DNA from: an uncultured virus (IMG/VR IMGVR_UViG_3300032006_001851) | Taxonomy: Duplodnaviria; Heunggongvirae; Uroviricota; Caudoviricetes | Direction: 5' to 3' (one strand) | Virus record (IMG/VR): IMGVR_UViG_3300032006_001851 | Length of the DNA: 20,000 nucleotides | Shown: piece by piece, positions 1 through 18,024 of the stretch | How positions within the stretch are numbered: position 1 is the first letter of the stretch | Layout of the letters: the number at the start of each line of letters is the position of its first letter | Program-made: the position numbers and the translations under genes | Notes under the pieces: model-generated | Told to the model about the DNA's origin: nothing | The model's database searches: none | The model's input: the letters and a program-made list of their open reading frames with translations, nothing else

Positions 1-1162
1 CATCCTGATTAGAGAATGTTAGCGGAGGTCTAAGTCTTATTGACTTGCTTCCGCATTTTAATGCCAGCATATCTTTAGAGAGGATTGACATAACTAGATC
101 TCTCACATACTCTTCAGAAAGGTCAAATGCTATCATTAGCCCTCTACCTCGGACATTGCTAATTACAGGCAAGCCTCTAAGGTTAGAAATTAACCGCTGA
201 CCAACATTTCTAGCGTTGTCAATCAAATTATATTTCTCAATCGCATCTATTATGTGTCTCGATCTAACCATATCCACAATATTGCCGCCCCAAGTAGAGT
301 TAATCCTGCCACTAGTGTTGAAGACATTGTCTTTAACCTCGTCTATTCTATCAGTTGAGCAAAAACCACACACCTGAGTCTTCTTGCCGAAGCACATCAT
401 GTCTGGAATAACCCCGAAGTGTTCGTATGCCCACATTTTGCCAGTAAGTCCCATTCCCGTTTGGACTTCGTCAAATATTAGAAGACAATCTCTTTCATTA
501 GCTATGCGTCTAAGGTTTGTGAAGAACTCTTTAGGAAAATGATTATCTCCTCCTTCTCCCTGTATGGGTTCTATAATTATCGCAGCAACTTCTTCGTGCA
601 TACGATCCTCAATCTCTCTCCAGTTCGGTTTAACAGTAGTCCACCTGAATCTTGGAAAGAGATCAGTCTTTTCTGGAGTAGTATTAGTTAGCGAAAGAGT
701 ATAACCGGTTCTTCCGTGGAATGCATTCTTTAAGTGGAAGACATCCATGTTGTTTATATCTACATAATGAGAATACCCTAACTTCTTAGCCTTCCAGTCA
801 AACGCAGCCTTGAGTGCGTTCTCTACACCTAAAGCACCGCCATCTACAAAAAAGTAGTGCTTGAAATCAGGAGTTGCTTCTGAAAACTTATCGGCAAACA
901 TTGCATACTCTTCTGAGTACATATCACTGTTAGCCAGCTTGTGCAGGGCCGCATTTCCTAAATCGTATTCAGCTTTCTGTAGAGCAGGATGATTCCACCC
1001 TAGAGGCTGGCTTGCAAACTGGGAATAGCAATCAAGATACTTTTCTCCCGTTTCGACATCTACTATCCAAGACCCACGACTTTTGCTTATATCTACAGCT
1101 ATATGAAAGCCGTCAGTAAGGATATGCTGAGACAACCTGTCTATAATTCTAGCGTCAGACAT
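1..1162 (-). CDS. lat: L-lysine 6-transaminase-like class III PLP aminotransferase (3' end runs off the window; not in supplied ORF track)
   Basis: Manual translation from ATG at 1162: MSDARIIDRLSQHILTDGFHIAVDISKSRGSWIVD...YLDCYSQFASQPLGWNHP...IIIEPIQGEGGDNHF...LIFDEVQTGMGLTGKMWAYEHFG..PDMMCFGKKTQVCG...RINSTWGGN. These are Lat-type motifs including the PLP-binding lysine region. Overlaps the upstream gene by 22 nt. Confidence 0.9.
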   Translation of the reverse strand, partial: MSDARIIDRLSQHILTDGFHIAVDISKSRGSWIVDVETGEKYLDCYSQFASQPLGWNHPALQKAEYDLGNAALHKLANSDMYSEEYAMFADKFSEATPDFKHYFFVDGGALGVENALKAAFDWKAKKLGYSHYVDINNMDVFHLKNAFHGRTGYTLSLTNTTPEKTDLFPRFRWTTVKPNWREIEDRMHEEVAAIIIEPIQGEGGDNHFPKEFFTNLRRIANERDCLLIFDEVQTGMGLTGKMWAYEHFGVIPDMMCFGKKTQVCGFCSTDRIDEVKDNVFNTSGRINSTWGGNIVDMVRSRHIIDAIEKYNLIDNARNVGQRLISNLRGLPVISNVRGRGLMIAFDLSEEYVRDLVMSILSKDMLALKCGSKSIRLRPPLTFSNQD

Positions 1163-1956
1163 CTTACTGCTCCTCCAGCCTTCATGAACTCTGACATATC
1201 GCAACAGTGAACATCGTGCTTATTTCCAAACATATCTTTACCGTCAGCGGAAGGTGTGATGATATTGTCGTCTATCTCAAGGCTATTACATATAAATTGT
1301 TCAGCGTATTGTTTATCTACATTTAATATATCTAGTTCAGTCTGTGAAAATAGACACTTCTCAAAAACCTTATTCATGATTTTATCACACGTCTTTGAGG
1401 AAAACGCATCTCTATAATACATGAATCTTTCCTTCATGGGAAAGAAACAGGTGTCGAGGTGATAGAAGTGCGGATTAACCAATTCACAAGATACGTAATC
1501 AACATCGAAAACTTTAGCGATTATTTTGTGAGACTCTATACTGGTCCTGAAGCCGTAACCCATAAATAAAACATTCTCAAAAAATATTGCATCTCCAGCG
1601 CCCTCAAAATAAATATTATCAGGAAGCTCAATAACTCTGTACCCGTTATCTAAGAACCATCGCTTGAATAACGCGCTCTCTCCCTGTCTCTCTTTATGTC
1701 TGTTATTGGATAATACTACAGTCTTGTCTACTACCAGACCAGCATTAGCAGTAAATACCATGTCGGGAAGGTCTGGGTCTGGTTTTATCTGTGAGAGATA
1801 CGCACCGGATCTCACAATCCTATCACACATTCTGATCCACTGCAAATTCGCCTTTTTGCTGTCCACAGAAACATCTGAGTTCATCCAAGCGTTTATCTCA
1901 TAGTTAACGCCGTAGAAAGATGGTGGACAGACAAGGACGTTTTTCATTCTATCCAA
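1141..1956 (-). CDS. Amidinotransferase/pentein-family hydrolase (DDAH / ArgZ arginine-dihydrolase-domain-like)
   Basis: Motifs CPPSFYGVNYEINAWM, LPDMVFTANAG, FEGAGDA, FYHLDTCF and EFMKAGGAVRCLTL (catalytic Asp/His/Cys of the pentein fold). Confidence 0.88.
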   Translation of the reverse strand: MDRMKNVLVCPPSFYGVNYEINAWMNSDVSVDSKKANLQWIRMCDRIVRSGAYLSQIKPDPDLPDMVFTANAGLVVDKTVVLSNNRHKERQGESALFKRWFLDNGYRVIELPDNIYFEGAGDAIFFENVLFMGYGFRTSIESHKIIAKVFDVDYVSCELVNPHFYHLDTCFFPMKERFMYYRDAFSSKTCDKIMNKVFEKCLFSQTELDILNVDKQYAEQFICNSLEIDDNIITPSADGKDMFGNKHDVHCCDMSEFMKAGGAVRCLTLEL

Positions 1957-2321
1957 GACTCCTCTGGTTGTTCTAAAGAACTATCATTATTGTAATTCAC
2001 CAAAAGCTCCTGACCTTCTTCTACGTCTTGGGTAGTTACCATGCCCTTTGTTTGTCCTTCGGTTACTATTTTACAGTTGGGATACTTTTCGGAATGGTTG
2101 TACTTATTGTTCGGAATTAGATTAATCCATTCATTTGCTGGAGCGGGTAGTCCAGTGTCATTGAGGATATCCCTATGAACATGAGTTACGTGGATAAAAG
2201 TGTTCTGCTGTAATTTAGTTTTAGCGAACAGACCTTCTCCATGTCTGGCACTGATTAAAACTTCTACCTGATCGCTAATAATTCCGTGTAGGCAAGTTTT
2301 TTCTTCGGCAGATGTCATCAT
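1944..2321 (-). CDS. Minimal SET-domain protein (putative lysine methyltransferase)
   Basis: SET motifs HGEGLFA (GxGLFA), KYNHSEKYPNC (NHSxxPN) and GQELLVNY (ELxxxY); 125 aa stand-alone domain. Confidence 0.8.
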   Translation of the reverse strand: MMTSAEEKTCLHGIISDQVEVLISARHGEGLFAKTKLQQNTFIHVTHVHRDILNDTGLPAPANEWINLIPNNKYNHSEKYPNCKIVTEGQTKGMVTTQDVEEGQELLVNYNNDSSLEQPEESWIE

Positions 2322-3835
2322 TCAGTTCCCGTATTCATTCCTTGTGGAAAATTAAGACTGTCTCCGTGATTAACAGTCCAAGCAACTTCATGGGTAACCG
2401 ATCTAAAAGTTCTTGCGGCACTAGGTTGTCCATTGCCAGATTTCTTTACTCCTCCAAATCCAAGATGGCTTTCAGCCGCAATACTGCCACCGTTCCAGTA
2501 ACCAAGACCAAAATCACATTCGTTACGAATTCTTCTGGCAACTTTAAAGTTCTCCGTTACTACTCCTAGAGCAAGTCCATAATCAGTGTCGTTATAAATA
2601 TTGATAGCTTCAGTTACAGTATCGTATGGCATAATGGAGACGTGAGGTCCGAAGACTTCGTTCTTTAGGTAGGGTGCATCCCTCCATTCTGTTTTGTAAA
2701 CAGTTGGGGTTAGAAACAAGCCTTCTGGTTCGAGATTAACACCTGCCAGCAGGACATCTACCTGTGTGTCACTGAATACCATGCTGTTGAAATTGGAGAC
2801 TCTCTCGTGCTGCTGCTTATTGATAAGTGGCCCGTAGAAAGTATTCTCATTGAATGGATCTCCGGTTTGAAGCTGAGAACTTCTCTTAGCAAATTCATCC
2901 GCAAATTGATGGTACAGAGATCTGTGAACAATCAGGCGTCCAGCGGAAACACATCTTTGTCCTGACAGTTTGTATGCGCTAGCTAGGCACGCCGCCATAG
3001 CCATATCATAGTTGGCATCTTCATGAATAATAACCGCTGATTTACTTCCCATTTCACAAGAACAAGTCTTATGCCAGCTTTCAGCACAAACCTTTCTGAC
3101 ATGCATCCCAACATCAGCGCTTCCGGTAAAGCAGACGTGGTCTACATCCTGATGTATTAATGCGTCACCAGCTTTTCCGTCGCCATGCACAACATTAAAT
3201 ACGCCGGGAGGAAATCCAGCATCGTAATAAAGTTTTGCAGTAATTTGACCAACCAAGGGAGTGTCTTCGCTTGGCTTTAAAATTACGGTATTGCCCTCAA
3301 CAAGAGCAGGAGCAGCGCACCAAAAACCACCAATCGCAAAAGGAAAATTAAAAGGCGCAACAATTGCAACCACTCCTTTTGGCTTCCTAAGCATGTACGC
3401 ATCTTTTTCTGGTAATTCTGAAGCAATTGCTTCACCATAAGGCATTCTCCCTGTACTAAATGCATATTGTGCCATATGCAATGCTTCGTTTACTTCTGCA
3501 ATAGATTCATTATATACCTTACCGGTTTCAAGAGTGATTGCTGTGGCGATCTCTTCTCGCCTCTCTTCTATTAGACTGGCTAGTCTCAGAAAGTAATCGG
3601 CTCTCTGCACCCTACTAAACTGCCTCCACCCGTGAAAGCTGTCTCTTGCACAATGATATGCTGAATCTATATCCGACTGAGTGGCTTGAGGAAATACTCC
3701 AACAACCTCTCCGGTTGCAGGATTTAAACTTTCAAATGAGTCGTCTTGGTTTCCGTTGCTGAACTGACCATTTATAAAGTGTGCGCCAAAAACTTTAGTT
3801 CCTTTGGCGACTTCATATATTGCACTAGTTTCCAT
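2318..3835 (-). CDS. NAD(P)-dependent aldehyde dehydrogenase (semialdehyde/P6C/P5C dehydrogenase-like)
   Basis: PFNFP, LKPSE, FTGS, CEMGSK (catalytic Glu), GQRC (catalytic Cys), EVFGP and FGGVKKSG; 505 aa. Confidence 0.93.
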   Translation of the reverse strand: METSAIYEVAKGTKVFGAHFINGQFSNGNQDDSFESLNPATGEVVGVFPQATQSDIDSAYHCARDSFHGWRQFSRVQRADYFLRLASLIEERREEIATAITLETGKVYNESIAEVNEALHMAQYAFSTGRMPYGEAIASELPEKDAYMLRKPKGVVAIVAPFNFPFAIGGFWCAAPALVEGNTVILKPSEDTPLVGQITAKLYYDAGFPPGVFNVVHGDGKAGDALIHQDVDHVCFTGSADVGMHVRKVCAESWHKTCSCEMGSKSAVIIHEDANYDMAMAACLASAYKLSGQRCVSAGRLIVHRSLYHQFADEFAKRSSQLQTGDPFNENTFYGPLINKQQHERVSNFNSMVFSDTQVDVLLAGVNLEPEGLFLTPTVYKTEWRDAPYLKNEVFGPHVSIMPYDTVTEAINIYNDTDYGLALGVVTENFKVARRIRNECDFGLGYWNGGSIAAESHLGFGGVKKSGNGQPSAARTFRSVTHEVAWTVNHGDSLNFPQGMNTGTE

Positions 3836-4335
3836 TATAATCCTTTCGTGCTTGTCATTAAGTCTTTAACTGATTTTTCACAGAAGCCTTTCGACCCGCG
3901 TTCAATCAACTCTATAATTATTCCACCTAAATACTCTAAAGGCTTAGTAAAGATTTGTCTGAGATCGTCATCTGGACAATCAATTATATCATCTGTAAGA
4001 AATTCGACAAATCTCTGTTTCTTCCATTCTTCAACAATACTGTCTATGTTTTTTACCTTGTAGGCTATATGATGTATCCCGCCGACATTATTTCTAGCTT
4101 CAACCCAATTTCCCACGATAGAGCCGGGGCTTCCATCAGAGATAAATATCTCTGGTCCCTCACGAACCAACACTAATGGCGTAACAGGGGGTATAAGAGC
4201 ATAGCATTCCGCTTTAGAACCATCATCGAACTCTATGTCAAACTCGGTTCCAACTTCATAGTTAAACATCAGGCGGAAAAACTCAGCCGCCTTATGTCTA
4301 TCCTTTACACGGTAAGCGATATGGTCTAGTTTCAC
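3835..4335 (-). CDS. VOC-superfamily metalloenzyme resembling an isolated C-terminal domain of 4-hydroxyphenylpyruvate dioxygenase
   Basis: LDHIAY, GGIHHIAY and LRQIFTKPL...IELIERGSKGF match the HPPD C-terminal His/His/Glu triad and QIFTKP motif. GTG start overlaps the upstream stop. Confidence 0.75.
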   Translation of the reverse strand: MKLDHIAYRVKDRHKAAEFFRLMFNYEVGTEFDIEFDDGSKAECYALIPPVTPLVLVREGPEIFISDGSPGSIVGNWVEARNNVGGIHHIAYKVKNIDSIVEEWKKQRFVEFLTDDIIDCPDDDLRQIFTKPLEYLGGIIIELIERGSKGFCEKSVKDLMTSTKGL

Positions 4336-4742
4336 GATACAATTTTTCTCCCATATCTGTCCCTGCCCTCCAGATCCTCAATTTCCTCCCAAACCTGACT
4401 CCATCCATCATCATCATCACTTCTAACTCTAGCAGCCTTGTCGTCAATATACATAACACCGGCAAGTTTGCCCATGTGTGCATGGTGATATTTAACGCCG
4501 TGTTTATCAAGCCACTCTATCCATTCTATATACCCTCTCTCGTATTGTCTGTGCATATTGCCCTTTTCCCTGTCGCCATACCTAGCTGTATATAGCACAA
4601 TTTCAAAACCCATGTCATAGAGTTTGTTTACTTGGTCGATTCCATGCTGTAGGGGGCCAGCATTTGCGTAGATGCCACCATGCTCCTTATCAGCAATAAC
4701 GCCATCACAATCCACGATTAATCTTTTTGAGCTATCTACCAT
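4332..4742 (-). CDS. Capless HAD-superfamily phosphatase (capsule-biosynthesis phosphatase-like)
   Basis: Motif I IVDCDGVI, motif II LYTAR, motif III/IV GK...YIDDKA; strong SD AAAGGAGGTGA upstream. Confidence 0.8.
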   Translation of the reverse strand: MVDSSKRLIVDCDGVIADKEHGGIYANAGPLQHGIDQVNKLYDMGFEIVLYTARYGDREKGNMHRQYERGYIEWIEWLDKHGVKYHHAHMGKLAGVMYIDDKAARVRSDDDDGWSQVWEEIEDLEGRDRYGRKIVS

Positions 4743-4805
4743 TTATCACCTCCTTTTATACTGCCCATTAATAATAACGAATATAAACGTAAAAAACACT
4801 AATAG

Positions 4806-4878
4806 TACCCTCGGCAGGACTCGAACCTGCAATCTACGGATTAGAAGTCCGTTGCATTATCCATTATGCTACGAGGGC
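4806..4878 (-). tRNA. tRNA-Arg(UCU), CCA not encoded
   Basis: GCCCTCG/CGAGGGT acceptor, anticodon arm ACGGA-CTTCTAA-TCCGT, T arm GCAGG-TTCGAGT-CCTGC. Confidence 0.95.
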
Positions 4879-5018: not shown

Positions 5019-5268
5019 TCTCATAAGCTTCTATAACGCGGCTAGTAGGTATTATTGTGTCATTAAAGCTATCAATAAGGAATGGTTCTCTGTTAGAAGG
5101 GAAGCCCTTCTGGTTAACAATAAAGGAATCTCCCAAGGTAACACCGCCCTCTCCAGTATCTAGGAAATGGTTGGAGGCTCTGCGTACTGCAAATACACAG
5201 GCGTAAAAAGGGGTGCTAGACGACACTACTTGTTGTAAGTTTCCAGTTTCCACATAGTATTTAGGCAT
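5005..5268 (-). CDS. Hypothetical protein (87 aa)
   Basis: TAATG overlap with the glmS stop; same strand as all neighbours. Confidence 0.65.
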   Translation of the reverse strand: MPKYYVETGNLQQVVSSSTPFYACVFAVRRASNHFLDTGEGGVTLGDSFIVNQKGFPSNREPFLIDSFNDTIIPTSRVIEAYENGKQ

Positions 5269-7058
5269 TAGACAGTTACACTTTTTGCTAGGTTACGAGG
5301 ACGATCAGGATTAAGCCCTTTTTTAACAGCTACATGATACGCAAGTAGCTGTAAAACTACGTTTGCTGCTAACGGCTCCATTGCTACTTCGCATGTTTCA
5401 TGTGTTCGGAAAGTCCAGTCTGCAACTTTTTTGACCCTGTCGTAATTTACAGGACTGACAACGGCGAACACTTCTCCTTTTCTAGATTTAACTTCTCTCA
5501 TATTGGAAATAATTGTGTCTATATCGAAAGAGCCAGTAACAGTAAATATACTTGGGGTCTTTTCATCCACTAAGGCAATAGGCCCGTGCTTCATTTCTGC
5601 TGCTGGCATACCTTCTGCATGGATGTAGCTCACTTCTTTTAACTTAAGAGCGCCCTCTAAGGCTATTGGATAGTCCCAATGTCTGCCTAGGAATAGAGCG
5701 TTGTCATACTGGGCTATCATCTTTGCAATAGTCGCCACGGCTTGTTCGCGGTCAAGTACATACTTGATTCCTTCGGCTAGGGCGTCTTGGTAGTCTAACA
5801 CTTTAAGTTCGTTTTCTTTAGATGACCAGTGCCACGCAAGCTCCCATAATGCATAACAAGTCAAGGTAAAGGTTTTTGTGGCGGCAACTCCTTGTTCAAG
5901 ATTTGCGCCAATATCAATCGTATTGAAGAAAGAATTGCCTAGCTGGGAGAAGGGTTGATTTGTGACTACAAATACTTCGTCTGATTTATCGTGGCAAGAT
6001 GCACGAACAATATCTTTAGTTTCCCCACTTTGAGTTATGTAGATTTTAGTTTCTTTAGGGTCTTTGAGCGTTACATTGATTGCTTCGCTTCCGTAAGTTA
6101 CCTTAGTGGGAATCTTTGCGAGTTCCTCAAACCAAACCTTCGCCCACATAGCTGCATAATAGCTACTACCGCAACCAATTAGGTGCAGTCTCTCTGGACG
6201 AAACGGAGGATGGTACATAGGATAATTACCCATATCCTCTATGAGTGAATATTGTTCTTTGATTTCATTGAGCATATGATGCTGCCCAAGAGGTTCACTG
6301 TTTATCGTATCTTGTGGTACGGATTCGGTAACTATAGAGTTGTTCGACAACTTTACACTGTGTACTATTCCCTCAGACGAGAGGCAGACTACGGAGTTCT
6401 TAATCCTCTTAGCCTCTTTTGCTTTCCCGGCGATAGCGTATGAATCGCTACTAACATATCCATTGTCAGTCACTAGCAGAGAGCTAGACCCTTTAGATGC
6501 ACAAAAGATAAGATCAGGTAGCTTTGCGAAAGACACTAAGAATGAGTTATCACCTTCCAGTTTATCAAGCACAGAATGAACTAGGTTAAGATGGTCCTCT
6601 GCTGTTATCGGAATATCTGATGAAGAAAGTTTAGTAGCATATCTATCTTTACTATCAACTTGAGCAAAATGAAAAACGGTTTTCAACTGTAGCTGTTGCA
6701 CTATAAATTGCGTATCTAGTAGCTCCGATGGAGAATTTTCCACCGTCCCGTTATGAACAACAAACACTCTCTGAGCCTTGTCATGTTGGGGATGGGCATT
6801 TTCCTTGGAGACTTCTCCGTGAGTAGCCCATCTCGTGTGACCTATTCCTGAGATAAAATCCCCATTGAGAGTATGAACTATACCTGCGAGTCTAGGATTT
6901 TGTGAAACAATCCCGATGTCTTTATAGAGAAAATGAGAGTTGTTCCTAAACGCACAAAAGCCATAGCTATCATACCCGCGATACTCTAGCCTCTTCATTC
7001 CTTCTACTACAGTGTTGGCCACATCGCTGCCACCCACATATCCTATTATGCCACACAT
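5268..7058 (-). CDS. glmS: Glutamine--fructose-6-phosphate aminotransferase (isomerizing)
   Basis: MCGIIG (Cys1), LEYRGYDS, GHTRWATHG, NAHP, VVHNG, CGSS, TQSGET, VAATKTF, ALEGALKLKEVSYIHAEG, KHGPIAL and PRNLAKSVTV. Confidence 0.96.
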   Translation of the reverse strand: MCGIIGYVGGSDVANTVVEGMKRLEYRGYDSYGFCAFRNNSHFLYKDIGIVSQNPRLAGIVHTLNGDFISGIGHTRWATHGEVSKENAHPQHDKAQRVFVVHNGTVENSPSELLDTQFIVQQLQLKTVFHFAQVDSKDRYATKLSSSDIPITAEDHLNLVHSVLDKLEGDNSFLVSFAKLPDLIFCASKGSSSLLVTDNGYVSSDSYAIAGKAKEAKRIKNSVVCLSSEGIVHSVKLSNNSIVTESVPQDTINSEPLGQHHMLNEIKEQYSLIEDMGNYPMYHPPFRPERLHLIGCGSSYYAAMWAKVWFEELAKIPTKVTYGSEAINVTLKDPKETKIYITQSGETKDIVRASCHDKSDEVFVVTNQPFSQLGNSFFNTIDIGANLEQGVAATKTFTLTCYALWELAWHWSSKENELKVLDYQDALAEGIKYVLDREQAVATIAKMIAQYDNALFLGRHWDYPIALEGALKLKEVSYIHAEGMPAAEMKHGPIALVDEKTPSIFTVTGSFDIDTIISNMREVKSRKGEVFAVVSPVNYDRVKKVADWTFRTHETCEVAMEPLAANVVLQLLAYHVAVKKGLNPDRPRNLAKSVTV

Positions 7059-7471
7059 AATATATCTCCGTTTTTATCTGACCACCAAATATCATCCACA
7101 CCAATAGCAGACAATACAGTTTGGCAATCCCTGCAAGGCTTTGCGTTTCTTAGAACACAACCTCTTGAGACTCTTAAGGAGACTAAGCTAAACGAATTAT
7201 CTATTTGTTCCCTGCCCCAAACTTTTTGCAGGGCATTTATCTCTGCATGAATATAGGGATATTTAATACGATGTTTTGTTTTGAACCTTTTTGCAAAGTA
7301 CAGTGCTTTTGCGCATGGTTTATCGGCACAGTTTTGACCAATAGAAATAAGCCTGTTCTTTTTCCATAAAAAGGCAAAATGAAAAGCCTTGTGACTTGTG
7401 GCATTTTCATATCGTTGAGGAAAAAGCTGACAGGCTATCTGAACAGACTTATCAATGTTCTTCTGGTTCAT
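7046..7471 (-). CDS. Zn-dependent cytidine/deoxycytidylate deaminase-fold protein
   Basis: HAEINAL and KPCRDC zinc motifs; SIGQN upstream. Confidence 0.8.
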   Translation of the reverse strand: MNQKNIDKSVQIACQLFPQRYENATSHKAFHFAFLWKKNRLISIGQNCADKPCAKALYFAKRFKTKHRIKYPYIHAEINALQKVWGREQIDNSFSLVSLRVSRGCVLRNAKPCRDCQTVLSAIGVDDIWWSDKNGDILCVA

Positions 7472-7646
7472 TCTTCTCTGGGTTCCTATAGGGAGTCAAC
7501 CTCTCTCTGGCCTCCCACTGTATTCTTTCAATTTCTTTTTCTATCCTCTTGGATTCCCTTAATTCATTTCTTCTCTTTACTACCCTAGCCTTGGCAACAG
7601 TCTCTCTATTCTTTTTCTTCTGCATCTTCTTGCGTTGTTTTCCCAT
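7452..7646 (-). CDS. Small highly basic hypothetical protein (64 aa)
   Basis: K/R-rich; TGATG overlap with the upstream gene. Confidence 0.6.
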   Translation of the reverse strand: MGKQRKKMQKKKNRETVAKARVVKRRNELRESKRIEKEIERIQWEARERLTPYRNPEKNEPEEH

Positions 7647-8131
7647 CAGCCCGAACCTCCTAACTCTAATTCAAATGGATCGCTTGGATCATTATGCTGT
7701 TTTAATTCTCTGTCCTTATGGTCATAATCCCTAGCGTGAGTCACTAATTCACTACTGCTCTGGATTTTATTACCACCAATATTCCACTTAAGACCTATGC
7801 CATATCGCTTACAAAACTTTACCTCTGGAACATTGTCAGAGATTCTATCTCCACCATTAGCGAAGTAGCATGGGCGTAATTTATCCAAAGCATCACACAC
7901 AGTGCCATCGGAGTCGTCCACCTCAATAACATGATGAACATCACTAAACGCTTCTAGGATCGACTTTCTTTCCTCAAAAGGCATGAACACATACCCTTTC
8001 TTTTGCTCCAACCAATCGTCGCTATTTAAAATAACGATAACATCACCGTGCTGTGAGGCATCTTTAATCATATTAAGATGCCCGATATGAACCGGATCAA
8101 ATCCACCACTGATAGCTATAGTTTTATTCAT
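7646..8131 (-). CDS. HIGH-motif cytidylyl/adenylyltransferase (TagD/RfaE/RibL-like family)
   Basis: SGGFDPVHIGHL, LNSDDWL..KKG, ERKSIL, FANGGDR and KIQSSS. Confidence 0.88.
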   Translation of the reverse strand: MNKTIAISGGFDPVHIGHLNMIKDASQHGDVIVILNSDDWLEQKKGYVFMPFEERKSILEAFSDVHHVIEVDDSDGTVCDALDKLRPCYFANGGDRISDNVPEVKFCKRYGIGLKWNIGGNKIQSSSELVTHARDYDHKDRELKQHNDPSDPFELELGGSG

Positions 8132-8146
8132 TTATACCACCTAATT

Positions 8147-8401
8147 TTAAAAGTCAAAGAAAGCAATACATTGTTCGCCTTCTTCTGTAAACCTCATGCT
8201 TGCAGCCTTATTCATAAACTTTAGTAGTTCGTCAGGCTCCAAGCCAAAGACAATCTCTTTGTCTTCGACATATCTTTTTTCAAAACCTGTAACTTGGATA
8301 GGACCAGCTTTGTTGTGGGATGCGCTTGCCAGCCAGCCGACATTGGATACATCCCTCTGAAAAAAAACGGTTACGTCATTCTTGAATTTAATATCTGGCA
8401 T
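8147..8401 (-). CDS. Hypothetical protein (84 aa, start revised to MPDIKF)
   Basis: The track start at 8461 lies inside the tmRNA 3' end. ATG at 8401 is preceded by AAGGA. Confidence 0.65.
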   Translation of the reverse strand: MPDIKFKNDVTVFFQRDVSNVGWLASASHNKAGPIQVTGFEKRYVEDKEIVFGLEPDELLKFMNKAASMRFTEEGEQCIAFFDF

Positions 8402-8418
8402 TTTTAATTCCTTTAAAA

Positions 8419-8759
8419 TGGAGGCGGCGGGAATCGAACCCGCGTCCTGTATAGTTTCCATAACAGCTTCTACATGGTTAGTTTATTGTATTCGCACAAC
8501 AAACAAGGCTAGCCTGATAAGTTCGGTTGGCATGCTCAGACGGCCCATATCCAACCTAGTGTGCGTTATTGAGGAATCGCACCAAAACCTTGTTTGGCTT
8601 GATTGGTTAATAAGGCTCAAGCCAGCCCCAAGCTACACTAGGCAGCTAACGCGAATTGCTTTTCGGCAATTACTTTTTTGGTCAGCTTTTATAGTGGCCA
8701 ACTGACCAACCACTCCATGCAACTATTATCTCCACTACCAGTCGAAACCAATCGCCCCC
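8419..8759 (-). ncRNA. ssrA: tmRNA, tag peptide (A)AEKQFALAA*
   Basis: 5' GGGGGCGATTGGTTTCGAC; 3' GACGCGGGTTCGATTCCCGCCGCCTCCA; acceptor stem with G3-U pair and A discriminator; pk1 (AGTGGTT/GGCCACT and GGTCAG/CTGACC); tag ORF at 8638-8667 GCC GAA AAG CAA TTC GCG TTA GCT GCC TAG. Confidence 0.95.
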
Positions 8760-8764
8760 TTGTA

Positions 8765-9793
8765 TTAAGTACTTGTAATAAACGGCGGGAGTCCCGCCCC
8801 TAGAGCTAACGCTACATTTATCTCTGCGGCACTATCAACTATATCTTCGTCAAGAATCTTACCGGCTTCTTCAAGCATAGGTGACATTAACCTATCTTTA
8901 ATTGCACTAGACGATTCTCTAACCTTTCCCGGCACAGAGGATCTGCCAGCCTTTTTACCTGATACGGTATCATAGCTATAAAATCCTCTATACGACTTTC
9001 TTCCGAAGTCTTTATTTTTGTATAGCTGATGGCATACGCTATTATCAGAAACGGTTATGTGATCATATGCTTTTGCTATACTTTGAGACCCGTGGTAGAT
9101 AACATCAAGACCAACGAGATCACATAGTTCTGCTGGACCCATAGGCCAGCCGTGATTTTTCATGACCGTATCTATGTGAGAATAATCGTGATCTTCTGAG
9201 ACCATCTTATCAAACTCAATGAGATAAGGCATTAACATTCTATTAACTACAAAACCACTGCAATCATTGCAAATTAGCGGCACTTTTCCTATAGCTAGAG
9301 ATGTCTTGCATAGAATGGCTACGGTTTCTTCTGAGGTAGATGGACTTGAAACTACTTCAACAAGAGGCATCCTAGATACAGGATTAAAAAAGTGCATCCC
9401 TCCGAAGTTACTGTTGGACGAAATGTCTTCTACTTTAAATGTTGAAGTGTTTGTTGCTACAAACTTGTCATCCCCACACTTGGAAATAAGGTCTCTCTTT
9501 AGAGAGATGACCTCTGGAACCGCTTCTATTACGAGATCGGCAGACTCTACTGCTTCCGATAGATCGGTTGTTCCTTTGATTAATGGAATATCTTCAGCTA
9601 ATTTAAATTGACCGACATCTATGTCGTACAGGTTTACATTAATAGCTGCCTTCTCAGCCAAGGCGGAAGCGATACCCATACCCATAGCTCCTGCTCCAAG
9701 AACAGCAACAGTTTTTGGGATATCAGTATTAGCAGAAAATTTTTCCGCCTTAGCTATAAGGCCCGAATAAAGATCACTCTTGTTCTCTGACAT
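8765..9793 (-). CDS. 3-hydroxyacyl-CoA dehydrogenase (C-terminal half of a FadB/FadJ-type enzyme)
   Basis: VAVLGAGAMG, EAVPE, ATNTST, GMHFFNPVSRMPLVE (catalytic His/Glu), GFVVNR and GWPMGP..L.D.VGLDV. Ends with a partial second HAD C-domain (...LGAGLPPF). Confidence 0.92.
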   Translation of the reverse strand: MSENKSDLYSGLIAKAEKFSANTDIPKTVAVLGAGAMGMGIASALAEKAAINVNLYDIDVGQFKLAEDIPLIKGTTDLSEAVESADLVIEAVPEVISLKRDLISKCGDDKFVATNTSTFKVEDISSNSNFGGMHFFNPVSRMPLVEVVSSPSTSEETVAILCKTSLAIGKVPLICNDCSGFVVNRMLMPYLIEFDKMVSEDHDYSHIDTVMKNHGWPMGPAELCDLVGLDVIYHGSQSIAKAYDHITVSDNSVCHQLYKNKDFGRKSYRGFYSYDTVSGKKAGRSSVPGKVRESSSAIKDRLMSPMLEEAGKILDEDIVDSAAEINVALALGAGLPPFITST

Positions 9794-9932: not shown

Positions 9933-10130
9933 TTATGCCCTGTCTATGCGACCTATTATATCCCGTAATTCATCCGTCGTCATTATTACACTCTGTTTGC
10001 TTAACACTTTAGTTTCGTCAAACCATGTCTGCACAAACGAAACTTCTTTATTTCCCTCGGAAATGAATGCTTTAGTCTCCCAATGAAAACTCCCCATGCC
10101 TTCATCACATTTATATATTAATCGTCCCAT
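9933..10130 (-). CDS. Hypothetical protein (65 aa)
   Basis: Overlaps the aldolase 3' end and fills the gap before tRNA-Ile. Confidence 0.6.
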   Translation of the reverse strand: MGRLIYKCDEGMGSFHWETKAFISEGNKEVSFVQTWFDETKVLSKQSVIMTTDELRDIIGRIDRA

Positions 10131-11070
10131 GAAGTTCGCCTTGTGTTGCTAGGCTGCATTGATTGGCTCGTTCCAACAAAGCGTTCTTGGCATCTTGCTT
10201 TTTTGCGTTTGCCCAAAGGCTTAAAGCATTCTTCTGCAACTCTCTACCAAATGAGAATGAAACATACCAAGGCAGATTAGATTCTTTATTTATAGCATTA
10301 AGATTTTCTACAGCAACCCCGTCATCTTGGCCCCCACTGAGGAAAGCGATCATGGGAACTGCTGATGGAATTGTACGCTTGAATGATCTGGTAGTTAACT
10401 CCGCTGTAATACTCGGATCGTTTTCTACGTCAGATTCGTATCCATTTAAAATCATGTTGGGTTTAAGTATAATATACTCCAACTCAACTCTCTCGTAGAA
10501 CATGGCATCAAATACATGGTGCAATACTCTTTCGGTTACGATAGCGGCATCCTTTATATAATGAAAGCCGTCCATTATTATCTCTGGTTCAACAATGGGG
10601 ACGATACCTTCAAGCTGACACTTTTTAGCATATCTAGCAAGGTTCCAAGCGTTAGCGAGAATACAAGAACCACTATCACGAACATTAATAACAGCACGCC
10701 ACTTAGCGAATTCGGCCCCCAAGTCTTTATAGACTCTGAGTCTTTCTGTAAGTCCATCTAATCCCTCCGTTAGTTTGCAGCATTCACCATAAGGTTTTGC
10801 ACCCTTATCAACCTTGATGCCAAGAGGGATCTTATCAAGCACTGGGGCAATGGTGTCCGAATTTCTAATAGTTTCGTCATACAGTATGATGCCACTAATA
10901 TAGTCTTCCAATCCATCGGCGCTAAATAGTGTGTGTCTATATGAGTGTCTGGTTCCTTCTGTGGAATCAATACCTACAGAATCAAATCTTTTCTTGATCG
11001 TGGGGGTACTCTCATCCGCTGCGAGAATTCCCTTGCCACGAACACATAACCTATCAATAGTATCTTGCAT
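10111..11070 (-). CDS. Class I fructose-bisphosphate aldolase (glycolytic, eukaryote-like family)
   Basis: GKGILAADES, ILYDET, GIKVDKG, TEGLDGL, FAKWRAV, VPIVEPE, LKPNM (Schiff-base Lys), FLSGGQ and SFSFGRELQ. Confidence 0.95.
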   Translation of the reverse strand: MQDTIDRLCVRGKGILAADESTPTIKKRFDSVGIDSTEGTRHSYRHTLFSADGLEDYISGIILYDETIRNSDTIAPVLDKIPLGIKVDKGAKPYGECCKLTEGLDGLTERLRVYKDLGAEFAKWRAVINVRDSGSCILANAWNLARYAKKCQLEGIVPIVEPEIIMDGFHYIKDAAIVTERVLHHVFDAMFYERVELEYIILKPNMILNGYESDVENDPSITAELTTRSFKRTIPSAVPMIAFLSGGQDDGVAVENLNAINKESNLPWYVSFSFGRELQKNALSLWANAKKQDAKNALLERANQCSLATQGELHGTINI

Positions 11071-12158
11071 TAGTAATGAACCCTATTCGTCCTGATGAAA
11101 GTTGCACACTTAGGAAAGTCTTTTAAAGACCTAGCACCAACGTAGGCACATGCGCTCCTAATACCTCCCATAATTTCTTGAACGACCTCTGAGACCGGAC
11201 CCTTGTAGTCAACAGACATAGACTTGCCTTCAGATGTTCTATAGGCTCCAACTCCACCGTTATGAGCCTTCATAGCATCCTCACTCGACATACCATAAAA
11301 CTTTAATGACTTTTTAACATTCTTTTCTCCGACATCATAACCACCAGAATCATTCTTAGTGATCTCTCGCTGATAGTTCCAGTCTCCTTCACACTCCTCT
11401 GTCCCGGCGAACATGCTACCCAGCATAACAAAATCGGCCCCGGCGGCAAATGCCTTAACAACATCTCCCGGTGTCCTGCACCCACCATCTGCACAGATAT
11501 GACCGTTAAGACCATGAGCCGCATCCGCACACTCTATAATAGCTGACAACTGAGGATAACCGCAACCTGTTACCATTCTAGTTGTGCATACACTACCCGG
11601 TCCTATTCCTATTTTAACGATATCGGCCCCTCCACTGATAAGTAATTCACTAACCATCTCTGGTGTACATACATTGCCAGCCATTATAATGGCGTCGGGA
11701 AACATATCTCGTATACGCTTAACATGGTCAACGAAAACCTTCTGATAGCCGTTTGCTACATCAATGCATATCTTATGTATACCTAAACCACACTCATCAA
11801 TGTGAGGAAGTTCATAGTCTACATCTAATAGTTTTTCAACGTCTTCTTCTTTTATGCCTATAGTGTAGAACGTGTTCAGTCTGGGCTGAGAACTAAAGTA
11901 GCCCACTAAGTCATCTACTTTGTAGTATTTATGCAAACAGGTCTGCATGCAATGCTTGTGCAGACTGTCAGACATTTCCATTGTTCCTACGGTGTCCATG
12001 TTTGCGGCAACAATAGGCACAACTATTTCTTCTGCTGGCGCATGAAGATATCGGTAGTGTTTTTCAACTTCAACCCCAGACCGACTATTGAGAGTGGATC
12101 TTTTCGGTCTGATAAGAACGTCGTCGAAATCTAGCTTAACTCCATCCTCGAATTTCAT
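11070..12158 (-). CDS. guaC: GMP reductase
   Basis: KLDFDDVLIRPKRSTLNSR, AANMDTVG, CIDVANGY, GIGPGSVCTTR, GYPQLSA, ADGGC, FYGMSS, YRTSEGK and GGIRSACAYVGA. Confidence 0.95.
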   Translation of the reverse strand: MKFEDGVKLDFDDVLIRPKRSTLNSRSGVEVEKHYRYLHAPAEEIVVPIVAANMDTVGTMEMSDSLHKHCMQTCLHKYYKVDDLVGYFSSQPRLNTFYTIGIKEEDVEKLLDVDYELPHIDECGLGIHKICIDVANGYQKVFVDHVKRIRDMFPDAIIMAGNVCTPEMVSELLISGGADIVKIGIGPGSVCTTRMVTGCGYPQLSAIIECADAAHGLNGHICADGGCRTPGDVVKAFAAGADFVMLGSMFAGTEECEGDWNYQREITKNDSGGYDVGEKNVKKSLKFYGMSSEDAMKAHNGGVGAYRTSEGKSMSVDYKGPVSEVVQEIMGGIRSACAYVGARSLKDFPKCATFIRTNRVHY

Positions 12159-13628: not shown

Positions 13629-13657
13629 ATTATAGGTGTCTATCTGAAATCGGTCAA
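13629..13657 (-). promoter_or_regulatory. Near-consensus sigma70 promoter
   Basis: TTGACC (13657-13652), 17-nt spacer, TATAAT (13634-13629), about 20 nt upstream of the ATG at 13608. Confidence 0.7.
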
Positions 13658-14230
13658 GCAGTCATTTTGAAAATATTCTTCTTCGTCAACCCCCGTGACG
13701 CTTTTGAGCCTCTCTACGCCTCTCCTTATGCCTTCGCTAACGGCTTGTTTGCTGATGTCACATTGTCTGGCTATTTCGACGCAGTTGTAACCTTCAACAT
13801 AGTATTTCTTGAGATACTTTTTCATGCTCTCAGACAGACAACTATGGTTAACGAGCTTGTTTACCTTATAGCTTGTGTCAGTCTCTTCGGGTTCTCTTTG
13901 AACTATAGTATCTCCGAATTCTGTGTAGTGACCCTCGTCGTCTTCTACACGATAGTTAAGAGACAGTGTTTCCTTGGCCTTGGCATCACGCTTCTTGAGC
14001 TTGCCAGCCCAAGATACCAAAGCCCATCGGCCACTGGATATACGATAGGTTGATCTCTTAGCTCCTTTGTCGGGATCATACTTCCAATCCGCTCTCATCA
14101 TCCAGTAAGAGACAAAGGCTACACACTCATCATCTTTCTGCCATTCCCACTTACCCCATTTTCCTATAACTCTCTTTGCCTCATGCCAGTAGTCCTTAAG
14201 GGATTTACCTTCCATCATGAATACCTCCAA
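13640..14230 (-). CDS. Divergent sigma-70-family RNA polymerase sigma factor
   Basis: Region-2-like ADWKYDPDKGAKRSTY..SGRWA (cf. FDPxKGxKFSTYA) and region-4 HTH LSESMKKYLKKYYVEGYNCVEIARQCDISKQAVSEGIRRGVERLK. Confidence 0.8.
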   Translation of the reverse strand: MEVFMMEGKSLKDYWHEAKRVIGKWGKWEWQKDDECVAFVSYWMMRADWKYDPDKGAKRSTYRISSGRWALVSWAGKLKKRDAKAKETLSLNYRVEDDEGHYTEFGDTIVQREPEETDTSYKVNKLVNHSCLSESMKKYLKKYYVEGYNCVEIARQCDISKQAVSEGIRRGVERLKSVTGVDEEEYFQNDCLTDFR

Positions 14231-14494: not shown

Positions 14495-14750
14495 TCTTTC
14501 TCCATCCTAACTTCCAAAGAATACAGGAAAGTTCGGTGGCGGTTTGTTCTACCCATTCCTCATCTTTATACCAGTCAGCAGCGTGTAATAATTCATGTAT
14601 TGTTACATCTAATTCTTCTACGCCTTCGAGTTCCTTGGATATGCGAATTTTCTTATCAGTAGTGTCAGGAGAATCGCACTTGCCAAGATAATCCCCTCTT
14701 AATTTTTTGAAGATTAGCTTCCAGTATTTTCCGCCAACCTTTATTCTCAT
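14469..14750 (-). CDS. Small HEXXH zincin-like putative metallopeptidase (93 aa)
   Basis: LGKCD...IRIS...VTIHELLHA...EEWVE minimal zincin pattern; ATGA overlap with the acyl-CoA dehydrogenase stop. Confidence 0.6.
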   Translation of the reverse strand: MRIKVGGKYWKLIFKKLRGDYLGKCDSPDTTDKKIRISKELEGVEELDVTIHELLHAADWYKDEEWVEQTATELSCILWKLGWRKNVSPDRKV

Positions 14751-16600
14751 GTTCTTTCGTACTTCATTAGAATAGACTCGTATCCACGCTCCCCCTTCTG
14801 GTTTGCAATAGCTTCACCAAGAGACACGCTCTTTCTTATCTGTGCATCGGTTGGATGTCTACCTGTTATTTTGTTTCTAAGATTATGACAAGACACATCA
14901 GCTATCAGTGCTTGCATTGGTTCTGCTTGAGCATAAGCGTAACAAACTGTAACCATAATAGTTATAAGATTCTGAATCTTTCTAGAGAGTATAGACATCC
15001 TGCACTGTTTGTCTGCTAATCCCAGTTGGTACTTGCGCATCAAAGAACTAATTTCCCAAGCAGATTTCTGCAATCCCTTAATGGCGAAGTTTGCATGGCT
15101 TACTAAGTCAGCATTAAAACCTATAGGTCTTATGCCACCCTTCGGAATAAGTTTCTCTTTAGCCATCCATTTCACATAAGGCATGAAAGTTTCAACATTG
15201 TTAATTACATCAAGGATGCTTGGGCTTCTCTTGCCCAGATTAGCCATCAGCTTTCCAACAGGCTCAAAGAAGGTCTGACCATGCTCTTTAACCAACCCCT
15301 TAAAGAAAGCCATGTTCAACATATCGCCTTCGCCCTCATAAATGAGAGGAGCAAGTATGTCGTGGATATTATCGCCAACAATATGCCCCGATAAAAATGA
15401 CCTTCCGCCGTGAGTTTTCATGCACAAATCAATTGCAGCTTCTTTCTGACACTCTGATCCAAATGTCTTCGCTATTATACACTCTAGCTCTCCTCTGTAT
15501 CCCTTGTCAATCAATCCTGAACACCAAGCTACAAGAGCATCAGATGAAAGAATGTATCCTGCAAGTCTAGCAATTCGTTCCTGAACCAACTCTCTGTTTT
15601 TGATTGACTGTCCATATGTTGACCTATAGGATGACCAAGGAAGCATCGAGTCCAGCATGGTCTTCATGCAACCAGATGCGTTAGCACATAAAGATATTCT
15701 TCCTAAGTTCAATCCGTGATATGCTACAGTCAGACCATCACCTCTGTCTAACTGGATAAGATTTTCTTTTGGTACTCTATGATTTGTAAATGTAAGTGAG
15801 TTGTTGTTAAGCCTAGTAAGCGCATGTATATCATAGTGTCCTATCTTAAATGTGTCAGTATCCGTCTCGGGAATTTCTACAAGAAGGACTTGAGGCTTAT
15901 TATCTATTTTACATACTACAGAAACAAGACCACCATAATGCACGTTTGTGATAAACAACTTAGTGCCGTTTAGAACGTAGTCGTCTCTGTCCATTATAGC
16001 ATATGTTTTCAGTGCTGTCAAGTCCGATCCGGCACAAGGTTCGGTTAGAGCAAAGGCAGATAGAAAAGTTCCATCAGCCAGTCCCGGTAAATACTTTTTC
16101 TTTTGATAGTCATTTCCAAATGTTCTAACAGGATCAACGGAACCTATACATCCATGAATGGAACACATTCCTGCCACGCTTGGTTCAATAGTGGCCATCT
16201 TTGTTAGGAATGAAGAAAACTCCGAGAAGGATACTGACGATTTATCTGGGAGTGGTACTAGCAGTCCGTAGTATCCGGCCTTAGACAAGGCGGTGATAAG
16301 TTCCTCGCTTAGTTTTCTTCCGTCGTACAGTTTATCTAGTTCTTTAAAGTGTTTGACAATTTCAAAACAGTTGTCCAGCATAGCCGAATTAGGTCTATGG
16401 AAGTCAAACTCAAAAAATTCTCTGGTTGGGAACTCCCCGCTCCATACAGCTTTGTGTGCTGGACTATTCTTGGTTTGATATTTATCGTCAAACAGTTCCT
16501 CTATTTGGTCATCTGCCGTATCTACTTTTCCTATGCTCGTAGACTCCTCTGCGGTTTTGCCGCTTAACTCCATAGCAGTTTCAGCAAAAGATTTACCCAT
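14747..16600 (-). CDS. Acyl-CoA dehydrogenase (FadE-like, with C-terminal extension)
   Basis: FGNDYQKKKYLP, SAFALTEPCAGSD, LNGTKLFITN, LNLGRISL, IAKTFGSE, THGGRSF and IYEGEG (catalytic Glu). Confidence 0.93.
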   Translation of the reverse strand: MGKSFAETAMELSGKTAEESTSIGKVDTADDQIEELFDDKYQTKNSPAHKAVWSGEFPTREFFEFDFHRPNSAMLDNCFEIVKHFKELDKLYDGRKLSEELITALSKAGYYGLLVPLPDKSSVSFSEFSSFLTKMATIEPSVAGMCSIHGCIGSVDPVRTFGNDYQKKKYLPGLADGTFLSAFALTEPCAGSDLTALKTYAIMDRDDYVLNGTKLFITNVHYGGLVSVVCKIDNKPQVLLVEIPETDTDTFKIGHYDIHALTRLNNNSLTFTNHRVPKENLIQLDRGDGLTVAYHGLNLGRISLCANASGCMKTMLDSMLPWSSYRSTYGQSIKNRELVQERIARLAGYILSSDALVAWCSGLIDKGYRGELECIIAKTFGSECQKEAAIDLCMKTHGGRSFLSGHIVGDNIHDILAPLIYEGEGDMLNMAFFKGLVKEHGQTFFEPVGKLMANLGKRSPSILDVINNVETFMPYVKWMAKEKLIPKGGIRPIGFNADLVSHANFAIKGLQKSAWEISSLMRKYQLGLADKQCRMSILSRKIQNLITIMVTVCYAYAQAEPMQALIADVSCHNLRNKITGRHPTDAQIRKSVSLGEAIANQKGERGYESILMKYERT

Positions 16601-17747: not shown

Positions 17748-18024
17748 AATTCATCTCGTCTATTTCAACCTGTTTCTCTAGAGACTTATACATGAGATTA
17801 CATGATATTTTGGCTATTGCTATACATTCCTCCACTCGTTCAATATCATCTTCGCCCATGTACTCCGCAATAGCTTCAATAAATGAGTATAAAACATGAC
17901 CCAGTTCTATGTTATCGGATTCCATTGAGGATACGAATTCCTCTAAGCCGAATGTTTCATTCTTGGCATACACCTCCTGAATGATGCTTTCTATAGTTGC
18001 AGATTTGACGTATGGTAATTTCAA
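17728..18024 (-). CDS. Acidic hypothetical protein (~98 aa; TTG start proposed)
   Basis: GGAG upstream of a TTG that overlaps the hydratase TGA (TTGA). The track start at 18066 lies inside the hydratase gene. Confidence 0.6.
   Translation of the reverse strand: MKLPYVKSATIESIIQEVYAKNETFGLEEFVSSMESDNIELGHVLYSFIEAIAEYMGEDDIERVEECIAIAKISCNLMYKSLEKQVEIDEMNYEQSDT

Follow-up and report, generated by a model that had tools for sequence, protein, structure and literature searches.

A conserved cassette of overlapping genes in an uncultured marine tailed phage, predicted to degrade arginine and lysine

The amino acids arginine and lysine are both rich in nitrogen. For arginine, the closest described system is that of ArgZ (Sll1336) of Synechocystis and AgrE (Alr4995) of Anabaena, enzymes of the ornithine-ammonia cycle; the products that ArgZ forms from arginine are ornithine, ammonia and CO2 (PMC8042125). 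For lysine, it is the lat-pcd route, in which a LAT-family transaminase such as that of Mycobacterium tuberculosis (Mtb) is partnered by an aldehyde dehydrogenase, together with the HglS/YdcJ/FLO7 proteins (DUF1338, PF07063), which turn 2-oxoadipate into D-2-hydroxyglutarate. HglS is described as a VOC enzyme mechanistically like HMS and HPPD, with His70, His226 and Glu294 as metal ligands and an arginine (Arg74; Arg64 in FLO7) to which the distal carboxylate of 2-oxoadipate binds and which determines specificity (PMC7286885). Here we analyse a 20,000-nucleotide stretch of DNA (the window) from an uncultured Caudoviricetes virus (IMG/VR record IMGVR_UViG_3300032006_001851), at whose low-coordinate end six genes form a single cassette. 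They encode, in order, a HAD-like protein, a VOC protein, an aldehyde dehydrogenase (ALDH), a SET-domain protein, a guanidino-group-modifying enzyme (GME) and a LAT-family aminotransferase (Lat).

As judged from the sequences, this phage operon is real and conserved, and the mechanism that we propose for it is plausible. Our reading, to which we give a probability of roughly 0.55, is that the cassette is an auxiliary metabolic operon with which an uncultured marine tailed phage would degrade host arginine and lysine. An earlier note, made from the letters alone, had described a compact route for lysine and/or arginine that releases nitrogen and glutamate. Homology and conserved gene order support that description, except that the HAD and SET genes probably fall outside the route. 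VOC, which the note had given no role, fits the lysine branch as a 2-oxoacid oxygenase domain of HPPD/HMS/HglS type.

The cassette and its conservation

The six open reading frames occupy 4742..2 on the minus strand, as do all credible genes of the window, and consecutive genes overlap at all five junctions. The first gene (4332..4742) encodes a HAD-like protein of 136 residues resembling small, cap-less phosphatases by its matches to TIGR01689, phrog_1238 and PDB entries, and its ATG at 4742 lies 6 nt downstream of the GGAGG core of a Shine-Dalgarno (SD) sequence, AAGGAGGTGA (4746..4755). VOC (3835..4335; 166 residues, GTG start; Pfam Glyoxalase_4) overlaps HAD by 4 nt (GTGA), and ALDH (2318..3835; 505 residues; PF00171) overlaps VOC by a single nucleotide (TAATG). 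The SET-domain methyltransferase gene (1944..2321; 125 residues; PF00856), which lies between ALDH and GME, overlaps ALDH by 4 nt (ATGA), as GME (1141..1947; 268 residues from its ATG; NF052232) does SET (again ATGA), a TTG at 1956 being a possible alternative start for GME. Last comes Lat (2..1162; PF00202, TIGR03251), a class-III aminotransferase overlapping GME by 22 nt, of which 387 residues are visible before the window edge cuts its 3' end; full-length relatives have about 402 residues, and in relatives the cassette extends past this edge. Directly upstream of the cassette is a tRNA-Arg(TCT) gene (4805..4878), found by ARAGORN and by Rfam (RF00005, 74.6 bits).

The overlaps and the SD sequence are as the earlier note had them, but its picture of six genes behind one strong SD needs amending, as ALDH, GME and Lat are each preceded by an SD-like motif as well (AAGGA at 5 nt, AGGAG at 11 nt and GGAGG at 9 nt, respectively); those ahead of VOC and SET are weak or poorly spaced. 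Its family labels were borne out by Pfam and NCBIfam, save that the protein called an amidinotransferase is nearest to ArgZ-type arginine dihydrolases instead. Scans of the window for promoters and terminators gave site counts not above those of shuffled sequence.

The genes that stay together in other viruses form a smaller set. With GME as the query we found 69 viral loci, of which 19 carry ALDH, GME and Lat contiguously and 48 carry GME alone, two further loci ending inside GME with ALDH upstream. Three more contigs from a scan with a SET alignment bring the number with contiguous ALDH-GME-Lat to 22, all in IMG/VR. Among the 19 loci, VOC lies directly upstream of ALDH in 15, and one locus starts inside ALDH; three others (L008, L010 and L014) have glycosyltransferase-like genes in the place of VOC or beside the core. 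HAD is present in eight and SET in one, while a saccharopine/lysine-dehydrogenase-family gene (best PDB match PH1688, E 4e-19) is found in nine and an ornithine-cyclodeaminase-family gene in seven. Without exception, the gene that directly follows ALDH in the relatives is GME or SET. With one SET protein as the query no match was obtained; the alignment scan gave ten loci, three of which (L150-L152) have the window's full HAD-VOC-ALDH-SET-GME-Lat order and six of which have SET outside the module position.

The Lat query returned 49 viral loci. At 22 of these, identity is at least 62% and the contigs coincide with the 19 plus three that carry ALDH-GME-Lat (loci L252-L271 being assigned to module contigs by contig name), and at the remaining 27, with 45-59% identity, Lat stands alone. 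Some of these Lat-alone contigs (L272-L298) are 340-530 kb long, and they have no GME, ALDH or VOC within 7 kb. In comparison with the relative L001, dN is 0.10-0.18 and synonymous sites are saturated, the signature of purifying selection. ALDH, GME and Lat make up the constant part of the module, in most cases accompanied by VOC, whereas HAD, SET and the genes downstream are accessory to it.

How much the shared layout says about a shared pathway depends on how common overlaps are. They occur at 12 of the 23 remaining protein-gene junctions of the window, a rate at which five out of five would arise with a chance of about 0.04; overlapping genes are thus a habit of this genome, and the cassette is only mildly unusual in this respect. 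Because overlap is habitual across the window, it is by itself no proof of a shared pathway. The six genes might instead be independent auxiliary genes packed together by genome compaction, each drawing on a separate host pool, and the frequency of overlaps elsewhere in the window, the solitary occurrence of GME (48 of 69 viral loci) and of Lat (27 of 49), and the varying presence of SET and HAD would all suit that explanation. We nevertheless consider it improbable. ALDH-GME-Lat is unsplit in 22 contigs despite protein identities down to 47-62% and saturated dS, a reaction order follows from the three enzyme families, and cellular genomes pair GME with ornithine aminotransferase, and Lat with a piperideine-6-carboxylate (P6C) dehydrogenase and a VOC relative.

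Predicted enzymes and the proposed route

The closest solved relatives of GME are arginine dihydrolases. Against the PDB it matches Sll1336 (6jv0, E 9e-59) and Alr4995 (6lrf, E 2e-55), its residues 4-267 aligning with residues 28-289 of Sll1336, full-length over 264 residues. The C-terminal Cys263, His163 of the HLDT motif and Asn68 of the FTANAG motif are among the residues that are invariant when the window protein is aligned with 20 of the 69 viral homologs (21 sequences); the Cys and the His are catalytic in arginine dihydrolases. GME is therefore predicted, from homology, to be a stand-alone arginine dihydrolase.

Lat scores 280.7 bits against PF00202, and among NCBIfam models TIGR03251 (LAT_fam) comes first by more than 250 bits, with 482 bits for the cut copy in the window. 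Its match to the Mtb LAT structure (PDB 2cin) has an E-value of 1.2e-103, and the positions of K300, D271, E243, T330, R170 and R422 are all conserved; of these we presume K300 to be the lysine that carries pyridoxal phosphate and E243 the switch residue, with D271, T330, R170 and R422 as further hallmark positions. We predict a divergent lysine/ornithine omega-transaminase of the LAT family.

ALDH is a full-length member of PF00171 (432.6 bits, above the gathering score, covering profile positions 5-455 of 461). Its PDB matches are generic, and the 120 database relatives listed for it, at 62-97% identity, are unnamed metagenome proteins without exception. We predict an NAD(P)-dependent enzyme that oxidises 2-aminoadipate semialdehyde and/or glutamate semialdehyde. 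In another viral contig (L202:2890-5614), an ALDH 58% identical to the window's adjoins a saccharopine/lysine-dehydrogenase-family gene, with neither GME nor Lat, and this pair looks like a two-gene alternative for taking lysine to 2-aminoadipate.

VOC required most of the analysis. An exhaustive search gave 210 representative clusters of homologs at E <= 1e-3, and we aligned the window protein with 40 near-full-length sequences of the 150 listed, excluding fragments and the two-domain proteins P0261 and P0264. Across this alignment H89, Q127, F129 and E142 are invariant, and conservation is 90% or more at D4, H5, R9, H88, T130 and R146. The 4-hydroxyphenylpyruvate dioxygenase model TIGR01263 (4HPPD) is matched by 40 of the 41 family members, with a best E of 1.3e-43; the window protein itself reaches 28 bits over profile positions 304-342 only, against a cut-off of 277 for this two-domain model of about 350 residues. 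A Pfam scan of the family returned generic glyoxalase families only. Its members carry LxQIFTKP, ELIxR and GF motifs, which are also found in HPPD.

The AF2 model of VOC is confident (pLDDT 93.5). Query TM-scores in Foldseek are 0.75-0.77 for HMS and HPPD against 0.66 for methylmalonyl-CoA epimerase (MCE), and VIA-align gives Z-scores of 19.2 and 17.9 for HMS, 18.0 for Pseudomonas fluorescens HPPD and 17.3 for human HPPD, against 14.9 for MCE. Rice HglS (6w1k_C) aligns with Z 13.3 and an rmsd of 3.1 over 158 residues, pairing model residues 1..166 with 56..310, and 3lho and 3iuz follow with Z 11.7 and 10.6; a fold search of BFVD gave one uninformative match at E <= 1e-3, with a TM-score of 0.30. 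At the level of profiles, hhalign aligned the whole viral protein with a Pfam-HGLS protein from a gammaproteobacterial genome (L301; probability 83.6, E 8e-6), pairing DH-IAY-R with DH-LAL-R, PEIFIS with PKIFIS, HHIA with NHFA, E-x3-R with E-x3-R, and GFCEKSVKDLMTST with GFIAASADKLFEST, so that H5, R9, H89, E142 and R146 fall on corresponding residues of that protein. The H-x3-R spacing of viral H5 and R9 equals that of His70 and Arg74 in HglS. HPPD has an Asn four residues after its first metal-binding His, at the position where the phage protein has Arg. Because of this spacing and the end-to-end alignment with the Pfam-HGLS protein, we read VOC as a minimal HglS/HPPD-type oxygenase: the alignments and the model predict an Fe(II)-dependent, 2-oxoacid-decarboxylating enzyme with 2-oxoadipate as the likeliest substrate.

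In the route that we propose, GME would convert arginine to ornithine, two NH3 and CO2, and Lat would pass the omega-amino group of lysine, and probably that of ornithine, to 2-oxoglutarate, yielding glutamate and either 2-aminoadipate semialdehyde or glutamate semialdehyde. ALDH would oxidise these semialdehydes to 2-aminoadipate or glutamate, giving NAD(P)H. Transamination of 2-aminoadipate, by the host or by Lat, would provide 2-oxoadipate, which VOC would decarboxylate and hydroxylate with O2 to give 2-hydroxyglutarate and CO2, and oxidation by the host would return 2-hydroxyglutarate to 2-oxoglutarate. The net effect would be to move the nitrogen of arginine and lysine into ammonia and glutamate, and their carbon into glutamate and 2-oxoglutarate, from which the phage could make nucleotides and amino sugars. 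HAD and SET would share the transcription unit and probably have other roles.

A tighter form of this route, which we offer tentatively and regard as possible rather than probable, has four proteins acting as a self-sufficient funnel: the dihydrolase, a single Lat acting on lysine, ornithine and 2-aminoadipate, a broad ALDH, and the 166-residue VOC as a minimal hydroxyglutarate synthase, with two-domain relatives of VOC replacing HglS in cells. If this were true, no known member of the HPPD/HMS/HglS group would be smaller than VOC, a hitherto unrecognised enzyme, and in bacteria that lack DUF1338 the two-domain relatives of VOC would stand in for HglS in lysine operons.

Cellular genomes supply models for the parts. 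The loci examined were the best 80 of 597 cellular relatives of GME, which are 36-43% identical to the viral protein. Three of them (L119, L121 and L130) have class-III aminotransferase matches, at 27%, and in L119 and L130 GME is directly beside an ornithine aminotransferase gene on the same strand (543 and 517 bits, cut-off 378). A Verrucomicrobiales locus (L109) has an operon of Lat (552 bits, cut-off 520.8), P6C dehydrogenase (764 bits, cut-off 730) and a protein of 457 residues (L109:3317-4690, minus strand) that matches no Pfam or NCBIfam family. The C-terminal half of this protein aligns with viral VOC (probability 84.3, E 7e-6), and the two have DH-x3-R, HH, QxFT, E-x3-R and GF motifs in common. 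The 457-residue family occurs in four of 151 sampled Verrucomicrobiota genomes and in all four adjoins a P6C dehydrogenase-like gene (L109, L169, L170 and L171), with a saccharopine-dehydrogenase-family gene between the two in two cases. Canonical HGLS was not found in G005, G067 and G124, three of the four genomes with the family (G019 was not searched); the family is a candidate for a non-orthologous replacement of HglS. With GME beside an ornithine transaminase in some cells, and an enzyme forming 2-aminoadipate semialdehyde beside an ALDH and a VOC-like protein in others, both halves of the cassette therefore have cellular models.

HAD and SET are the genes for which the idea of six genes in one pathway is not supported, HAD being present in eight of the 19 relatives and SET in five contigs including the window. 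HAD scores 50.7 bits against TIGR01689 (cut-off 162) and matches phrog_1238 (E 8.7e-21), PDB 1xpj (E 1e-10) and 9iqw, a 'capsule biosynthesis protein' (E 7e-5), and its translation contains a DCDG motif. It is probably a capsule-biosynthesis-phosphatase-like protein outside the amino-acid route; given its resemblance to these small phosphatases, it fits the nearby sugar genes better than amino-acid catabolism. SET scores 32 bits against PF00856 (cut-off 22.4), with an invariant NHS motif and a conserved ELLVxY motif. Its AF2 model (pLDDT 80.3) has SET-domain methyltransferases as its listed Foldseek matches, among which vSET (3kma) ranks third with a target-normalised TM-score of 0.67. By sequence and by model, then, this is a real minimal SET domain. 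It sits at the same junction in five contigs (the window, L014, L150, L151 and L152) with 42-48% identity, and is probably a passenger of the transcription unit with another role. We considered carnitine synthesis, with SET acting alongside an ALDH resembling TMABA dehydrogenase, and rejected it, since SET is found in the module in those five contigs only and no coupled aldolase or hydroxylase partner is present.

Counter-evidence and neighbouring genes

A number of findings weigh against our reading, and we set them out here enzyme by enzyme, with the alternatives that some of them favour. For GME, the best NCBIfam model, NF052232 (Arg_dihydro), gives 243 bits against an equivalog-domain cut-off of 450, and an Mtb-type dimethylargininase model comes second with 200 bits, also below its cut-off. 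The closeness of these two scores, together with DDAH_eukar as the top Pfam match, would suit a route for lysine only, consisting of Lat, ALDH and VOC, in which GME acts on homoarginine (giving lysine), on methylated arginines in the manner of DDAH or on citrulline, and there is no ornithine branch. The distance of the viral GME clade from its best cellular relatives could be taken the same way, and Lat, VOC and the saccharopine/lysine-dehydrogenase-like gene of the relatives all point to lysine. Set against this, the nearest solved and characterised relatives are the arginine dihydrolases Sll1336 and Alr4995, the DDAH1 structures reaching E 1e-5 only; cellular stand-alone GME homologs adjoin ornithine aminotransferase; and an ornithine-cyclodeaminase-family gene accompanies the module in seven of the 19 loci. 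We judge the lysine-only route unlikely, and retain arginine as the predicted substrate of GME.

The four full-length viral relatives of Lat score 468-484 bits, below the LAT_fam equivalog cut-off of 520.8, and the viral proteins lack about 22 residues of Mtb LAT (chain residues 198-225). A LAT-family gene lies near GME in just one (L109) of the best 80 of 597 cellular loci. ALDH falls below every NCBIfam equivalog cut-off and fits no subfamily: aminobutyraldehyde dehydrogenase is its best match (324.7 bits, cut-off 615), followed by glutamate-semialdehyde dehydrogenase (309 bits), and the P6C dehydrogenase model NF050084 gives 275 bits (cut-off 730). Its identity to the P6C dehydrogenase-like genes of L109, L169, L170 and L171 is 27-30%.

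For VOC, the tie to HglS is one of remote homology, consisting of profile alignments at about 84% probability and of shared motifs, and the Pfam HGLS model (PF07063) matches one of the 41 family members, with an E of 0.067, and not the window protein. By contrast, the MCE model TIGR03081 is matched by all 41 members (best E 1.1e-18) and is the best NCBIfam match of the window protein itself (E 8e-9), albeit with 36.1 bits against a cut-off of 114.95. MCE also has the best E-values in the PDB, both by sequence and in Foldseek with the model. The window encodes an acyl-CoA dehydrogenase, an enoyl-CoA hydratase and a 3-hydroxyacyl-CoA dehydrogenase that an MCE-type enzyme could serve. We hold this to be very improbable. 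Across the family the 4HPPD matches are far stronger (1e-43 against 1e-18), HMS and HPPD lie 3-4 Z units above MCE and cover a C-terminal helix that is absent from MCE (model residues 1..166 against 1..148), the QIFT, E-x3-R and GF...ST motifs are of the HPPD/HglS type, and the VOC gene is coupled to ALDH whereas the acyl-CoA genes are about 4-14 kb away.

Two steps of the route are not recognisably encoded, namely 2-aminoadipate to 2-oxoadipate and 2-hydroxyglutarate to 2-oxoglutarate: a search of four related viral records, including a complete one, gave neither a class I/II aminotransferase (PF00155) nor a FAD_binding_4 oxidase (PF01565). In 15 of the 19 relatives a short UDP-glucose-dehydrogenase (UGDH)-like gene directly follows Lat and is coupled to it. 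Its 280-residue product (L001:4744-5586) keeps the GGSCFPKD catalytic motif and lacks the C-terminal UDP-binding domain. We considered and rejected it as the missing 2-hydroxyglutarate dehydrogenase, for it retains the UGDH catalytic motif, and the gene, present in at least 542 viral stretches, is without the module at 68 of the 80 loci listed (L172-L251) and with it at 12.

The last point against concerns sugar-metabolism genes, which flank the core: glucosamine-6-phosphate synthase (GlmS; 5268-7058, above the NCBIfam cut-off), a cytidylyltransferase (7646-8131), HAD, and in relatives the UGDH-like gene. The module might accordingly be biosynthetic, its product being a non-protein unit (2-aminoadipate, ornithine, pipecolate or an amino acid of opine type) that the enzymes of neighbouring sugar genes put on a glycan or virion. 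The capsule-phosphatase-like HAD, GlmS and the cytidylyltransferase around the core in the window, the nucleotide-sugar-dehydrogenase-like gene that 15 of the 19 relatives have coupled to Lat, and the glycosyltransferase-like genes of L008, L010 and L014 in place of VOC or beside the core are all in keeping with this. We think it a poor bet, as the UGDH-like gene is widespread in phages and has the module at 12 of the 80 listed loci, HAD is found in eight of the 19 relatives only, the scanned neighbours include no ligase or transferase that would attach an amino acid, and the closest characterised relatives of the core enzymes are all catabolic.

The viral and marine setting of the cassette is well supported. 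Megablast gave no match of the whole window to cultured phages; its relatives are IMG/VR contigs, one of which (G001; 161 kb, 100% complete by CheckV) shares the genes neighbouring the cassette at 72-89% and encodes a large terminase subunit whose identity to the cultured-phage proteins is only about 23%. The first 5.3 kb of the window recur nearly letter for letter in at least 20 DNA sequencing runs of marine plankton or seawater from at least three studies, many of which may be the window's own source, and no RNA run is among the listed runs that contain the stretch.

The remainder of the window encodes many small open reading frames without a family, along with further metabolic genes. A deaminase-like protein (7046-7471), a class-I fructose-bisphosphate aldolase (10111-11070) and a GMP-reductase/IMPDH-family protein (11070-12158) form, with GlmS and the cytidylyltransferase, an unusually dense island of central metabolism. 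The acyl-CoA dehydrogenase (617 residues; 14747-16600), enoyl-CoA hydratase (18021-18989) and 3-hydroxyacyl-CoA dehydrogenase (8765-9793) could serve fatty-acid oxidation or a branch of lysine degradation from glutaryl-CoA to acetoacetyl-CoA. A PF10014 2OG-Fe dioxygenase (16778-17398; 142 bits) belongs to what we understand to be a family containing hydroxylases of free amino acids, and a 196-residue protein with a C-terminus like sigma-70 region 4 (13640-14230) may be a phage transcription factor. RNA genes of the window comprise three tRNAs and a tmRNA (8416-8759; Rfam RF00023, 134 bits; ARAGORN tag AEKQFALAA), the 3' end of which is overlapped by an open reading frame of 104 residues (8147..8461) that is 86% conserved in L003. 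In contigs of the L004 type, the module and a gene for an RNase T-like exonuclease lie between two genes for parts of DNA polymerase III alpha, so that DnaE is split into a PHP/NTPase half and a finger/HhH/OB half (L004:3847-5763 and L004:12521-14212).

Comparison with described systems

The enzymes of the cassette come from known superfamilies. Our literature searches turned up no account of their combination, of its viral location or of the single-domain HglS-like oxygenase; the nearest published statement reports, for large marine phages, an enrichment in auxiliary metabolic genes of the KEGG-level category 'lysine degradation' (PMC10732071). If our reading is true, the rewiring of host metabolism by marine phages would reach past the known nucleotide and photosynthesis genes to nitrogen metabolism. 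VOC would in that case offer a model for the HPPD/HMS/HglS oxygenases that is very small and easy to express, and would point to an unannotated enzyme family for the 2-oxoadipate step in bacterial lysine operons.

GME has the guanidino-group-modifying fold in common with ArgZ and AgrE. Those proteins are fusions of about 700 residues with an ornithine-cyclodeaminase-like domain, whereas the phage enzyme is a single domain whose coupled partners are a LAT-type transaminase and an ALDH in place of the cyclodeaminase. The lat-pcd route, represented by Mtb LAT and by the Verrucomicrobiales operon, resembles the phage cassette in pairing a LAT-family enzyme with an aldehyde dehydrogenase, and the third gene of the Verrucomicrobiales operon is related to phage VOC. 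The phage differs in gene order and in the insertion of a guanidino hydrolase, its ALDH lies outside the P6C dehydrogenase family, and its Lat is below the equivalog cut-off. The SET protein is comparable to vSET of Paramecium bursaria chlorella virus 1, a minimal viral SET protein of about 120 residues, but unlike vSET it comes from a bacterial phage and is encoded inside a metabolic operon.

The comparison for VOC is with two groups at once. It has the VOC fold and the His/His/Glu triad in common with HglS, YdcJ and FLO7, as well as PxIFIS and GF...L-x-ST motifs, and lies in a context predicted to be lysine-catabolic; yet it has 166 residues and no helical insertion where the HglS proteins have from 272 to about 450, and in both sequence and structure it is nearer the C-terminal domain of HPPD and HMS than HglS. 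HPPD and HMS are its best structural matches, but they are built of two domains where the phage protein has one, and they act in aromatic metabolism, whereas the phage gene stands among genes of predicted amino-acid catabolism.

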